Assembly (NCBI GenBank): GCA_046050355.1
Contig: JBJOPW010000008.1
Location: 1 to 45,678 of the forward strand
Direction of reading: 5' to 3'
Source of the DNA: Candidatus Parcubacteria bacterium
Lineage (GTDB): Bacteria > Patescibacteriota > Minisyncoccia > Phycocordibacterales > UBA918
DNA length: 45,678 bases
Shown: piece after piece, positions 33,550 through 42,977 of the stretch
How the letters are laid out: each line of letters starts with the position of its first letter
Position numbering within the stretch: the stretch's first letter is position 1
The notes under the pieces: generated by a model
What the model saw: only the letters and a program-made list of their open reading frames with translations
Told to the model about the DNA's origin: nothing
Databases searched by the model: none
Translations under genes and position numbers: made by a program

Positions 33550-34668
33550 TCACGAGTATCGCTTCGCTTCGCGATACTTGGACACATTCAGTACAATACC
33601 TACCATGGCAAGAGTGGCAAGGAGCGCCGTGCCGCCATGACTAATAAAGGGTAGTGGCAGACCCGACAACGGTGCTACTCCAAGCATGGCGCCAATATTC
33701 AAAAAGGCTTGACATACAATCAGTGTCATAAAACCAACGACGAGGAGGGTTCCAAAGAGGTCTGGTGCCTGACTCGCAATTTTGTAGCCACGGAAAGTAA
33801 AGCCAAGATACAGGAGGATAAGCAGGCTTGAACCAATAAAACCAAACTCTTCCGCATAGACAGCAAAGATAGAATCACCGATCGGTTCCGGTAGATACTC
33901 AAACTTTTGAATACTTTGGCCAAACCCTCGACCGGTAAGACCACCAGAACCAACGGCGATCAGAGATTGCTGGATCTGATAGCCACTCCCCTGCGGGTCG
34001 CGCTCGGGATGGAGAAAGGTGGTGAGACGGTCCATAATATATGGTCGTACGAGCGCCACGAGTATGAGTAACAGCACTGCTGAGAGGAACATAAGACCAA
34101 CATCACGCCAGCGACCGCCGGCCGTAATAAACATTGCTACCCCGGCCGTTCCCATGATAAGGAATGTGTCGGTGTCTGGTTGGAGGAGCATAATCAGAGC
34201 AACAAAACTCACAATACCAACAAAGGGCAATGTTCCCCGCAGCGGGTCTTTAATAACATCGCGCATACCAGAGAGCCAGGTCGCGATATAAATTATAAAA
34301 CCAATTTTAAGGAGTTCGGCTGGCTGTAAGGTGAAACCCCCAATGGAGATCCAACGAGTGGCGCCTCCGTGGGTCATGCCAAAACCAGGAATAAACACTG
34401 CTAGCGTCAGGAGTACGGTAAGTAAAAAGATATAAAACGCGTAGCGACGGAGGTGGCGGTAGTGGAGTTGTGAGAGCGCAAATAAGGCTATTCCCCCACC
34501 AACGATACCAAACAAGAACTGACTACTGGCGACACTGCCAAAACTCGCACCATTGCGTGCAAGAAGGCCAAGAGACGCCGAAGAAAAAATCAAAAAGCCA
34601 AACCCAACAAGCAAGGCTACGAGGAGCGCCAGTACTTTGTCGATTGATTTGCTGGGTGGGTTTTTCAT
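33550..34668 (-). CDS. ftsW: SEDS peptidoglycan polymerase
   Basis: GATRWI, QPAELLK, LQPD, GYQ..QS, YLPE...DSIF, G.PLPFIS.GG; between mraY and murG. Confidence 0.93.
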   Translation of the reverse strand: MKNPPSKSIDKVLALLVALLVGFGFLIFSSASLGLLARNGASFGSVASSQFLFGIVGGGIALFALSQLHYRHLRRYAFYIFLLTVLLTLAVFIPGFGMTHGGATRWISIGGFTLQPAELLKIGFIIYIATWLSGMRDVIKDPLRGTLPFVGIVSFVALIMLLQPDTDTFLIMGTAGVAMFITAGGRWRDVGLMFLSAVLLLILVALVRPYIMDRLTTFLHPERDPQGSGYQIQQSLIAVGSGGLTGRGFGQSIQKFEYLPEPIGDSIFAVYAEEFGFIGSSLLILLYLGFTFRGYKIASQAPDLFGTLLVVGFMTLIVCQAFLNIGAMLGVAPLSGLPLPFISHGGTALLATLAMVGIVLNVSKYREAKRYS

Positions 34669-41135: not shown

Positions 41136-42497
41136 CTAGATATCAGCTTCGTCACTCTGGTTAGTACTCGTAAACACGTCGATACGGTTGATGTCTCGTG
41201 GGAAGAGGGTGGCTTCCTTCACGTTATCTAGTCCACAGAACTTCTGGGTGAGACGTTCGAGTCCCATCCCCCACCCTCCGTGTGGCGGAATACCAAAGCG
41301 GAAGGCTTGGAGATAGAAGTGGAACTTGTCAGGATCAAGTCCTTTCATCTTGATACGCTCAATGAGGTTCTCGTAGTTGTGGACACGCTGCCCACCGGTC
41401 GTGATCTCTACCCCTCGGAAGAGGAGGTCAAAACTCTTTGTAAAGCCAAGGTCAGCCTCGTCTTCGTACGTATAGAACGGACGTTTTGAAACTGGGTAGT
41501 GCGTGATAAAGATGTAATCACTGCCGAGCTCCTTGTTCGCGTATTCACAGAGCCACCGTTCATCTTCTGGCTCTAGGTCTGGTTCTATGGTCTTATCAAC
41601 CCCGGTCTTCTCTTTGATGAGTGCCTGCGCTTCACGAAGCTTCATAAATGGGAAGGTGTCTCCTTCGACTGGTACCTTCGGCAGTTCAATACCGAGGGTC
41701 GTGAATTCGGGTGTGCAGGTTGCTTCGAGGTGAGCCCGGAGGTGACGCATGAGGCCGGTAAGAATCTTCATGAGATCGTGGTGGTCTTCGATAAAGCCGA
41801 CCTCGGCATCGAGTGAAGTGTATTCACTGAGGTGACGAGTAGTAGCACTCTTTTCAGCGCGGAAAGCGGTAGCAAAAGTAAAGACTCGCTCGAGTGAGCC
41901 AACGAGAATCTGCTTGTAGAACTGCGGACTTGAGGCCAGATAGGCTGTGGTCTCACGGAAGTACGGCACCTTAAAGACCGCGGCTCCCCCTTCAGCATCG
42001 CCCCCGACGAGCTTTGGCGCTTGGAACTCAGTAAAGCCCTGACTACGGAGAAACTCAGCGTAACCACGAGTGATTTCACTCTGAATCTTAAAGATGGCGC
42101 GGTCGCGCTTACTCTTGAGGGTGAGCGGACGGTTATCAAGGCGGACTTCGATACCATACTCGCTATCAAGCTCGAGCGGTAGTGACTCGGCCTTGTTGAG
42201 GATAGTGATGTTGGTGATCTCAAGTTCGATATCACCGTTTTGTACTTTCTCGTTCACCATCTTTTCAGGTCGCTTATTCACGATACCCGTGATGGCAACG
42301 GCTGATTCGTTCCCGGCCTCTTTCGCGACTTCGAGTACCTCAGGCTTCCCAAAGACGACACCTTGGACTATGCCACTGCGGTCACGAAAATCAAAGAAAG
42401 CCATCTTCCCCTGGTCGCGACGGACGTCGACAATCGCTTTGATAATAACCGTCTCACCGATGTGAGTATTGAGTTCGTTGATTAATGTTCGAGTCAT
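41136..42497 (-). CDS. aspS: Aspartate--tRNA(Asp/Asn) ligase, short archaeal-type, probably non-discriminating
   Basis: OB fold, AEGGAAVF, SPQFYKQ, FRAEKS.T.RHLSEY, GGQR, PPHGG.G.GLERL; no GAD insert. Confidence 0.92.
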   Translation of the reverse strand: MTRTLINELNTHIGETVIIKAIVDVRRDQGKMAFFDFRDRSGIVQGVVFGKPEVLEVAKEAGNESAVAITGIVNKRPEKMVNEKVQNGDIELEITNITILNKAESLPLELDSEYGIEVRLDNRPLTLKSKRDRAIFKIQSEITRGYAEFLRSQGFTEFQAPKLVGGDAEGGAAVFKVPYFRETTAYLASSPQFYKQILVGSLERVFTFATAFRAEKSATTRHLSEYTSLDAEVGFIEDHHDLMKILTGLMRHLRAHLEATCTPEFTTLGIELPKVPVEGDTFPFMKLREAQALIKEKTGVDKTIEPDLEPEDERWLCEYANKELGSDYIFITHYPVSKRPFYTYEDEADLGFTKSFDLLFRGVEITTGGQRVHNYENLIERIKMKGLDPDKFHFYLQAFRFGIPPHGGWGMGLERLTQKFCGLDNVKEATLFPRDINRIDVFTSTNQSDEADI

Positions 42498-42519
42498 ATA
42501 GTTTTTGAGTTACGGAGAA

Positions 42520-42670
42520 ACGAAAAATCGTCCCTCCACAAATATTAGTTACTTAATACTTGTGCAGGGGCGATTACAATAGTGAGTATTGCGTATTCGC
42601 GGTGCCACCCTACTTTGGTCTCTTTCTTCCCTCTTCTACCTCGGCGGTTGTCAGCCGCGTCATTGGTTCA
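42520..42670 (-). promoter_or_regulatory. T-box riboswitch (Asp) with ultrashort Stem I
   Basis: AAAGTAGGGTGGCACCGCG (42616-42598), antiterminator partner CGCCCCT, terminator plus T-run, GCGG-CTGACAA-CCGC loop. Confidence 0.88.
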
Positions 42671-42698
42671 TTTCATTCTGCCAGACCTGGCCAAAATG

Positions 42699-42977
42699 TC
42701 AATTTCTCACCGGAGCCACTACAATAACTTGTCTGTCTTCATCAAAACTTATCTTTACCCCCGGTTGGGCAAAATCATCCTGCAATTCGCTAAACACGTT
42801 TGGGGTCATCTGGGTGTCTTCGGTAAAGCTAATGATTTTTGTGTTATTTTCAGTTTCGGCTTCACAATCATAGCTCAGCCCGCCAAGGAAAAACGCAATC
42901 TTGGCAGCTGTATCAGCCACTACCTTTGGCACCCCTTCTTCTTCGTATTGGTTAAACTGCGAATCTGGTCCTTTCAT
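42699..42977 (-). CDS. Small acidic hypothetical protein
   Basis: ATG 1 nt after trpS stop; 92 aa. Confidence 0.55.
   Translation of the reverse strand: MKGPDSQFNQYEEEGVPKVVADTAAKIAFFLGGLSYDCEAETENNTKIISFTEDTQMTPNVFSELQDDFAQPGVKISFDEDRQVIVVAPVRN

Follow-up and report, generated by a model that had tools for sequence, protein, structure and literature searches.

The described T-boxes closest to the leader reported here are the ultrashort T-boxes of actinobacterial ileS (Mycobacterium, Nocardia), which have a short Stem I with the specifier in its terminal loop, no platform for the tRNA elbow and a K-turn at the base. All ultrashort T-boxes are stated to regulate ileS and to be translational (bioRxiv 10.1101/2023.02.28.530422). 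The glyQS T-box of Bacillus and Geobacillus is transcriptional and naturally lacks Stem II and the pseudoknot; a K-turn is located basally in the Stem I of T-boxes, and in glyQS a flexible linker runs from it to the discriminator (PMC7583486). According to the same paper, transcriptional T-boxes require the elbow-binding platform, those with a truncated Stem I require Stem II (with the pseudoknot), and Stem III is indispensable, with an antiterminator without Stem III not binding tRNA appreciably. We analysed a leader in front of aspS, the aspartyl-tRNA synthetase (AspRS) gene of a Candidatus Parcubacteria bacterium, in which the platform, Stem II with the pseudoknot and Stem III are all missing. 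It lies on the minus strand of a 45,678-nt stretch of DNA (contig JBJOPW010000008.1, positions 1 to 45,678, assembly GCA_046050355.1), which is called the window below.

By its switch and its tRNA-matching elements the leader is a member of the T-box family, and it is a new, extremely reduced transcriptional variant. That it derives from a T-box and has the anatomy listed here is nearly certain. From the sequence comparisons, it probably also still responds to tRNA-Asp and controls the sole AspRS gene of the genome by transcription attenuation. The core of the sequence-only reading is therewith supported: aspS, in a genome of the candidate phyla radiation type, is controlled by a T-box of the transcriptional kind whose ultrashort Stem I has GAC in its terminal loop. 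The features of the leader are as follows, all on the minus strand:

42514-42702: switch region as a whole (promoter, short hairpin, T-box antiterminator, terminator)
42702-42697: −35 box TTGACA, overlapping the TGA stop (42701-42699) of a small open reading frame (ORF)
42683-42675: extended −10 box TG-n-CAGAAT (CAGAAT at 42680-42675), with a 16-nt spacer from the −35 box
42667-42638: ultrashort Stem I, 30 nt
42667-42665 with 42640-42638: C-stem ACC/GGU of Stem I, followed by the 3-nt bulge AAU
42661-42660 with 42642-42641: tandem G-A/A-G of Stem I
42658-42655 with 42647-42644: Stem I helix GCGG/CCGC
42654-42648: terminal loop CUGACAA of Stem I, 7 nt
42652-42650: specifier GAC (Asp); the next base, A at 42649, is a conserved purine
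42637-42626: purine-rich single-stranded linker, varying in sequence and length among five sister leaders (2 of 12 columns invariant)
42625-42611: discriminator purine string AAAGAG, then ACC, then AAAGUA
42611-42566: antiterminator, with helix A1 (AGGG/CCCU) and helix A2 (GCGA/UCGC) with an apical hairpin
42610-42598: T-box sequence GGGUGGCACCGCG, the sole match in the window at one mismatch or fewer
42607-42601: T-box bulge UGGCACC, 7 nt
42573-42566: antiterminator partner UCGCCCCU
42572-42529: intrinsic terminator hairpin of 18 positions, two of them mismatched, whose 5' strand is the antiterminator 3' strand
42527-42523: U-run UUUUU after the terminator hairpin
42537-42514: third hairpin, in which the terminator 3' strand can pair with the pyrimidine tract behind the U-run and the U-run itself forms the loop
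41136-42497: aspS, the regulated gene, an archaeal-type aspartate--tRNA(Asn) ligase (NF003483, 475.7 bits)

The switch and the specifier hairpin

The T-box sequence, the antiterminator partner and the terminator with its T-run were all found where the sequence-only reading had placed them. The T-box motif alone is weak evidence, because 0.14 matches are expected by chance per window and 12 of 100 shuffles contained at least one. It stands in an antiterminator with a 7-nt UGGN-ACC bulge, and this antiterminator shares a strand with a terminator that excludes it and is more stable (computed energies of −8.3 and −20.9 kcal/mol, respectively). A terminator that is stronger than the antiterminator is the usual asymmetry of T-boxes. 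The leader folded better than shuffled sequences (z = −3.2). It shares with the canonical T-box (RF00230) the T-box sequence, the UGGN-ACC bulge antiterminator, the competing terminator, the specifier followed by a purine and the K-turn, but its middle region is missing entirely, as are some 100 nt of Stem I.

A check of the site with RF00230 stayed below the gathering score. Rfam gave no match in the window at the gathering score, which is 93 for this model, and in E-value mode only a local antiterminator match was obtained (42566-42615, model positions 183-216, 15.2 bits, E 0.58). The model performed similarly on the loci of ten relatives, where it reached 29-49 bits in seven and 93 in none. 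The T-box terminator was missed by a simple terminator scan, probably on account of the two mismatches inside its hairpin.

Relatives were found by a search with the AspRS protein, and their genomes are named Candidatus Kaiserbacteria, Paceibacteria, Parcubacteria or Patescibacteria. In 40 related genomes, 28 aspS loci had at least 200 nt of upstream sequence; 17 of these showed a T-box motif at most 1.4 kb upstream of aspS, in 15 cases within 260 nt of the ATG. In a species-representative genome collection the same T-box leader preceded aspS in 40 of 78 loci, with 35 within 260 nt of the ATG. The 3' domains of the relatives (48 distinct) were aligned and used to build a covariance model, R1, which scored the window site at 97.4 bits (E 4.9e-28). 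In this alignment 97.7% of the antiterminator cells were paired and both sides changed at three of eight pairs, in A1 and in A2; for the terminator the values were 88.6% and 13 of 18 pairs, whereas the slid-partner controls fell to 37-53%. The R1 score and the covariation among the relatives support that the site is more than a chance match.

The two sides of the third hairpin also change together (GUGGAG/CUCCAC, UGUAGG/CCUACA, UAUAGG/CCUAUA; covariation by eye). Its mean duplex energy in 48 leaders was −10.1 kcal/mol for the own pair, −7.8 kcal/mol for cross-leader pairs and −6.6 kcal/mol for shuffles. This hairpin cannot affect the termination decision.

The hairpin that had been proposed near the start, with GAC in its terminal loop, was confirmed at 42658-42644. 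It is the upper part of a Stem I of only 30 nt, and the long Stem I with a distal platform for the tRNA elbow is absent. The same 30-nt module occurs in all GAC leaders. It consists of a 3-pair C-stem, a 3-nt bulge, the tandem G-A/A-G, a helix of 4-5 bp and a loop of 6-7 nt that reads N-U-GAC-A-(N). The base of the module we take to be a K-turn, following the K-turn consensus; its C-stem covaries (AU, GU, UA, GC) and its GA pairs are invariant. The codon GAC with the following purine A matches the amino acid of the regulated gene.

The Stem I sequences of the relatives were collected with a pattern that demanded GA, GAC or AAC, and GA-GG, which 9 of 53 T-box rows did not fit; six loci with a short 3' flank were dropped. 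The 39 distinct sequences had 87.5% of their cells paired, compared with 78.8% in shuffles, and pairing fell to 21-54% when the partners were slid. Both sides changed at six of eight pairs, and the observed covariation score was reached by none of 500 shuffles. RNAalifold recovered the Stem I hairpin and the terminator unguided from the five closest leaders. The conservation of GAC, for which an alignment of aspS leaders had been suggested as a check, was found in 39 of 39 distinct hairpins, partly by construction since the pattern admitted only GAC or AAC.

These elements suggest how the leader could work. The transcript would begin right at Stem I, about 7 nt past the −10 box, and the loop of Stem I would offer GAC and the following A to tRNA-Asp for pairing with its anticodon GUC. 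From there, some 25 nt of purine-rich single strand, including the conserved purines that normally flank Stem III, would lead to the discriminator, where the UGGC of the bulge would pair with uncharged tRNA-Asp at its free G73-C-C-A end. Such pairing would stabilise the weak antiterminator, so that RNA polymerase could read into aspS. A charged tRNA could not pair in this way; the stronger terminator would then form and transcription would stop at the U-run.

Loss of the middle region

The distance between Stem I and the T-box spans 25-204 nt in 44 distinct GAC leaders. Most of them contain Stem II, in which AGUAGA resembles an S-turn, together with a pseudoknot of the IIA/B type and Stem III, and these full-type leaders are alike in Stem II motif and pseudoknot to the actinobacterial ileS T-boxes. 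Some have a short Stem II with the pseudoknot and about a dozen have Stem III only. An automatic motif classification assigned Stem II and the pseudoknot to about 26 of the 44 leaders, but it is crude: it mislabels L003, which has a chance AGUAAA, and calls Stem III in some leaders without it (L029, L075). For the middle-region groups we relied only on the lengths and on reading by eye.

In the window and in four sister species, whose AspRS proteins are 88-94% identical, the middle region is reduced to a purine-rich stretch of 25-29 nt with no predicted helix (fold energy of −1.0 kcal/mol or weaker). In the window it measures 28 nt and holds no Stem II, S-turn or IIA/B pseudoknot. The reduction therefore goes beyond the ultrashort Stem I claimed from the sequence alone, because Stem II, the pseudoknot and Stem III are absent as well. 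Of the features compared, the window leader lacks four canonical structural ones and three of four of the ultrashort class. It does have the terminal-loop specifier in a short Stem I without platform, but it shows no regulation of ileS by tRNA-Ile, no sequestrator of the ribosome-binding site and no clamp of Stem II S-turn and pseudoknot. The actinobacterial class is translational and confined to ileS, whereas the window leader has a terminator and U-run, stands before aspS with GAC, belongs to Patescibacteria and is without Stem II, pseudoknot or Stem III. The glyQS T-box, which lacks Stem II and the pseudoknot too, differs by its long Stem I with the elbow platform and its need for Stem III, and its all-G/C codon-anticodon pairing, the published reason for lacking Stem II, contrasts with the A-U pair that GAC includes in the window (PMC7583486).

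At the site of Stem III, the purines on both sides were kept and the hairpin was replaced by three variable nucleotides. Just before the antiterminator the five minimal leaders read AA-n-GAG, three variable nucleotides and AAAGUA; the purine string was invariant at five of six positions, AAAGUA at six of six and the three nucleotides between them at none of three. The published purine string is 5'-RRRxG-[Stem III]-AA-3' (PMC7583486), and the motif of the minimal leaders, as read from their alignment, is this string minus the Stem III hairpin. Six full-type leaders (L025, L029, L071, L075, L098, L099) were also without a Stem III hairpin and with the purines kept, as seen by eye. The linker between Stem I and the purine string looks like a remnant of the 5' strand of Stem II.

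Two pairings of the linker were tried and rejected. A GGU/ACC pairing within the linker failed, as ACC is unconserved in L034 and L035 and GGU is part of the K-turn C-stem. Pairing of 42621-42632 with the U-run and pyrimidine tract (42514-42527) appeared in the single-sequence minimum free energy fold and in RNAalifold, with a covariation term of +0.84, and is unsupported. Such a helix would enclose the whole discriminator in a long-range pairing.

In a FastTree of 96 AspRS proteins, which is a gene tree rather than a species tree, the five minimal leaders formed one clade (support 99) whose sister is a full-type leader (support 100). Since they form one clade, the reduced form has persisted through speciation. 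The state with Stem III only requires 12 changes on the tree, of which nine are forced by well-supported branches, with states assigned by the crude rule.

Proposed tRNA ligands and alternative readings

The host genome has 0.94 Mb in 17 contigs and is rated 99.97% complete. ARAGORN reported no tRNA-Asp in it and missed both the tRNA-Asp and the intron-split tRNA-Asn genes, which were located with the intron-less tRNA-Asp of a relative as probe:

contig 11, about 33775-34063, plus strand: tRNA-Asp (GUC), locus L123, with a 215-nt group I intron after U35 (RF00028, 43.7 bits) and G73
contig 4, about 68065-68372, minus strand: tRNA-Asn (GUU), locus L124, with a 236-nt group I intron after U35 (RF00028, 79.2 bits) and G73

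The gathering score of RF00028 is 50. Because both genes carry group I introns, the ligands of the T-box depend on self-splicing, and neither gene encodes CCA. The specifier GAC pairs with the GUC anticodon of the tRNA-Asp. The fit of a UGGN bulge with N = C to the discriminator base, which had been put forward in the sequence-only reading, holds in this genome: both tRNAs have G73, so UGGC matches the acceptor ends of tRNA-Asp and of tRNA-Asn.

A non-discriminating AspRS had also been suspected, and the genome agrees with it. The aspS gene is the only AspRS gene, with no bacterial-type AspRS found in the genome; an asparaginyl-tRNA synthetase (AsnRS) was likewise not found there, the best match of the asnS model being aspS itself (246 bits against a cut-off of 342.6). 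With gatB present (466.7 bits) and the NF003483 match, the aspS product must charge both tRNA-Asp and tRNA-Asn.

The switch might then sense both tRNAs, as had been proposed from an AAC that directly follows GAC. The AAC form of this proposal is unsupported, since AAC follows GAC in only 2 of 39 distinct Stem I sequences and in one of the five closest leaders; the G73 shared by both tRNAs still speaks for dual sensing. In another form, tRNA-Asp would be read by three Watson-Crick pairs and tRNA-Asn (GUU) through a G-U wobble at the first position, with both G73-CCA ends pairing to UGGC. We regard such a dual sensor as unlikely, and the GAC-GUU pairing itself as speculation. It would suit a synthetase that has to charge both tRNAs, and Stem II, which inspects the codon-anticodon geometry elsewhere, is absent here, which would make a wobble tolerable (PMC7583486). 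Known T-boxes, however, use three Watson-Crick pairs (PMC7583486), and the full-type relatives, which have Stem II, also carry GAC.

Some relatives lend the dual sensor a further argument: before the same non-discriminating aspS, AAC replaces GAC in the same loop in L020, L067, L104, L109 and L155 (by eye), mostly with UGGU. Judged from these leaders, the specifier of the aspS T-box has switched between the two tRNA substrates of AspRS in Patescibacteria. Other combinations were GAC with UGGU (L053, L071, L075, L149) and GAU (L069, L132). In Clostridium acetobutylicum, a two-codon T-box reportedly precedes genes of the tRNA-dependent asparagine pathway including a non-discriminating AspRS, and its codons are said to overlap within an internal specifier loop of a Stem I that is long. 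Like the window leader, it raises the issue of whether more than one tRNA is sensed; the window leader differs in its single terminal-loop GAC and an adjacent AAC that is unconserved.

We tentatively consider a more far-reaching reading, in which the leader is a natural T-box of about 100 nt (42667-42566) that senses uncharged tRNA by two Watson-Crick contacts only, at a specifier loop mounted on the K-turn and at a UGGC discriminator without Stem III, tethered to each other by the purine-rich single strand, possibly reads tRNA-Asp and, by wobble, tRNA-Asn, and is the minimal T-box of an undescribed set in Patescibacteria. Both tRNAs may be read in this case because nothing inspects the codon geometry. 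One switch would then serve the two amino-acid pools of the sole non-discriminating AspRS, and it would be one of a short-Stem-I, terminator-type set on aspS, thrS, ileS and glyS in Patescibacteria.

The preferred reading of a T-box that still responds to tRNA-Asp has to be weighed against several observations. The leader is without the platform, Stem II with the pseudoknot, and Stem III, all three of which were reported as required (PMC7583486). RF00230 scored the site far below its gathering score. The window terminator has two mismatches, the U-run of the sister L035 is degenerate and the sister L033 has an insertion between hairpin and U-run. The invariance of the letters demanded by the Stem I pattern is partly built in for the 39 sequences, and the relatives are non-independent samples.

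In one alternative, the leader would be a relic that no longer senses tRNA after the loss of its domains and acts as a leaky constitutive attenuator of aspS and as terminator of the transcript from trpS and the small ORF. In the T-boxes studied, tRNA binding is reported to depend on the domains lost here (PMC7583486), the linker is unconserved, and the flaws of the terminator in the window and of the U-run in L035 fit as well. We nevertheless think a relic improbable, since the motifs that would contact the tRNA were invariant in five species while the neutral parts diverged. Among the five minimal leaders the invariant columns amounted to 100% for both GA dinucleotides and for AAAGUA, A1 and the bulge, to 83% for the purine string and to 71% for the specifier loop, but only to 12% for the promoter spacer, 17% for the linker and 22% for the apical part of A2. 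The Stem I helix is compensated among these leaders (GCGG/CCGC, GUGG/CCAC, ACGA/UCGU), and so is the apical hairpin of A2. In addition, a terminator of −20.9 kcal/mol before the only AspRS gene needs a means of being overcome, and Stem II and the pseudoknot were lost repeatedly on the tree. Every base-pairing and purine-string motif is kept, apparently under purifying selection and upstream of an essential gene, and the pattern of invariance, as far as sequences can tell, is that of a working tRNA sensor rather than a relic.

A helper acting in trans, a K-turn- or tRNA-binding protein or an RNA, might replace the lost scaffolds, and we give this little weight. The missing domains serve as scaffolds and are not themselves partners in base pairing, the K-turn was strictly kept, and K-turn-binding proteins bind T-box K-turns in Bacillus (PMC7583486). 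A search of the genome with PF01248 for an L7Ae-family K-turn protein, however, gave no match, which also counts against the preferred reading, and no candidate was identified. The small ORF next to the leader was considered as a helper protein and rejected, as it matches no family and evolves fast (36% identity to the copy in a sister genome, against 94% for AspRS).

The tRNA-Asp-responsive T-box would conflict with the models from Bacillus glyQS and actinobacterial ileS, because the three stated requirements are absent and the contact motifs are kept (PMC7583486). If functional, it defines a minimal tRNA-sensing module, a compact part for structural work and engineering, and shows how genome-reduced bacteria strip down regulatory RNAs. 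If non-functional, it is a dated example of riboswitch decay. The leader may show the smallest form possible for a T-box switch.

Elsewhere in the genome, tRNAs and tRNA-like elements stand in a row in the 23S-5S spacer (L112; contig 2, 124300-125400). The row comprises a tRNA-Ser(CGA), a tRNA-like RNA whose 25-nt anticodon loop encloses a hairpin with a GNRA cap, one further tRNA-like match that is weak, a tRNA-Pro(GGG) and a 'tRNA-Asn(GUU)' of odd sequence that has A33 and G37.

Promoter, neighbouring genes and other T-boxes

Translational control as in actinobacterial ileS, with the hairpin sequestering the ribosome-binding site, is highly improbable. All ultrashort T-boxes described are translational (bioRxiv 10.1101/2023.02.28.530422), and the 3' strand of the hairpin does contain GGAGG. 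This motif, however, lies about 35 nt from the ATG. No Shine-Dalgarno (SD)-like motif precedes the ATG of the window's aspS, and none was found at −20 to −4 in 42 related aspS loci, whereas a U-run followed the hairpin in 44 of 50 distinct relatives. For these two reasons transcription attenuation is the natural reading. The ATG in the 42 loci is preceded by an A-rich unstructured stretch, and their sequences suggest SD-independent initiation of aspS.

The promoter TTGACA-16-CAGAAT that had been described was found, with a score of 10 out of 12. Promoter-like sites in the region are at chance level (4 observed, 3.8 expected). Among the relatives, where 70 nt upstream were scanned, 27 of 37 distinct leaders had a best −35/−10 pair that scored 9 or more out of 12, compared with 9.4% of shuffles. 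In 29 of the 37 leaders, 6-10 nt separate the end of the −10 box from the C-stem, with which the pairing of Stem I begins, and in the window the distance is 7 nt; a canonical Stem I does not fit into such a space. Transcription is predicted to start near 42668, 0-2 nt before Stem I. The RNA sequencing runs retrieved shared only 5-6% of the sampled sequence words, and from them four short contigs of relatives aligned over 42382-42704; such contigs do not mark transcript ends.

Around the leader the gene order on the minus strand is as follows:

43920-42979, minus strand: trpS
42977-42699, minus strand: small ORF of 92 amino acids (aa), with its ATG at 42977, which separates trpS from the leader
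between the small ORF and aspS, minus strand: 201-nt leader
42497-41136, minus strand: aspS

The small ORF had no family match in NCBIfam or Pfam but is retained as an ORF in the sister genomes. Because this conserved ORF occupies the space before the leader, a long Stem I upstream is excluded. A transcript that starts far upstream and yields a normal long Stem I, which would have overturned the sequence-only reading, is extremely unlikely: transcription could run on from trpS and the small ORF, as no terminator lies between them and the leader, but the 279 nt upstream are this ORF, Rfam detected no Stem I there, the promoter adjoins the hairpin with conserved spacing, and many relatives have other genes or unrelated sequence upstream. 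In three relatives (L004, L023, L050) about 390-430 nt separate the T-box from the ATG of aspS downstream. This gap is filled in L004 and L023 by an ORF of 125-138 aa, which would be co-regulated.

The genome contains a second T-box, before thrS (L157; contig 6, 32952-33059, minus strand; R1, 63.8 bits). The gene was identified by TIGR00418 (633 bits). Its leader has a UGGA bulge, a terminator and a short covarying hairpin with ACC in the terminal loop CUACCAA, and the enclosing helix is formed by CAGAGAUUG with CCUAAUCUG. A third R1 match (C2:86939-87052, 21.3 bits) was rejected as a plain terminator without T-box sequence. When RF00230 was run on the whole genome, only the aspS antiterminator was matched and the thrS leader was missed. 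Since all Patescibacteria T-boxes scanned with Rfam fall below the threshold, they are missed by standard annotation.

In the genus, 115 of 128 genomes had at least one R1 match at E ≤1e-3, a count that is an upper bound because plain terminators can score about 21 bits; the thrS leader accounts for 12 of the 20 second-tier genus matches that were fetched. In an even draw across the phylum, R1 matches at E ≤1e-5 occurred in 29 of 151 genomes. Eleven of these loci were read, of which two had no T-box motif by pattern, one was on a contig that ended before the gene and eight were usable. A full-text literature search found no paper that joins T-boxes with Patescibacteria, the candidate phyla radiation, Saccharibacteria or Parcubacteria, with supplements outside the search. 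According to the TBDB paper, its model for a short Stem I was applied to Actinobacteria and to Rfam-model matches only; the supplements of that paper may bear on whether such leaders are already catalogued.

The genes downstream of the eight usable loci were the non-discriminating aspS in three cases, ileS in two (one confirmed by family search and the second by eye), glyS, proS and a TrpD-like gene. Terminator-type T-boxes before glyS, ileS, proS and the TrpD-like gene were seen at L151, L152, L153, L154, L156, L126 and L135. The ileS leaders have AUC in the terminal loop (UAAUCA), a Stem II, a pseudoknot and a terminator, and the glyS leader has GGC in a short terminal loop. All leaders of aspS, thrS, ileS and glyS that were read carry their specifier in the terminal loop.

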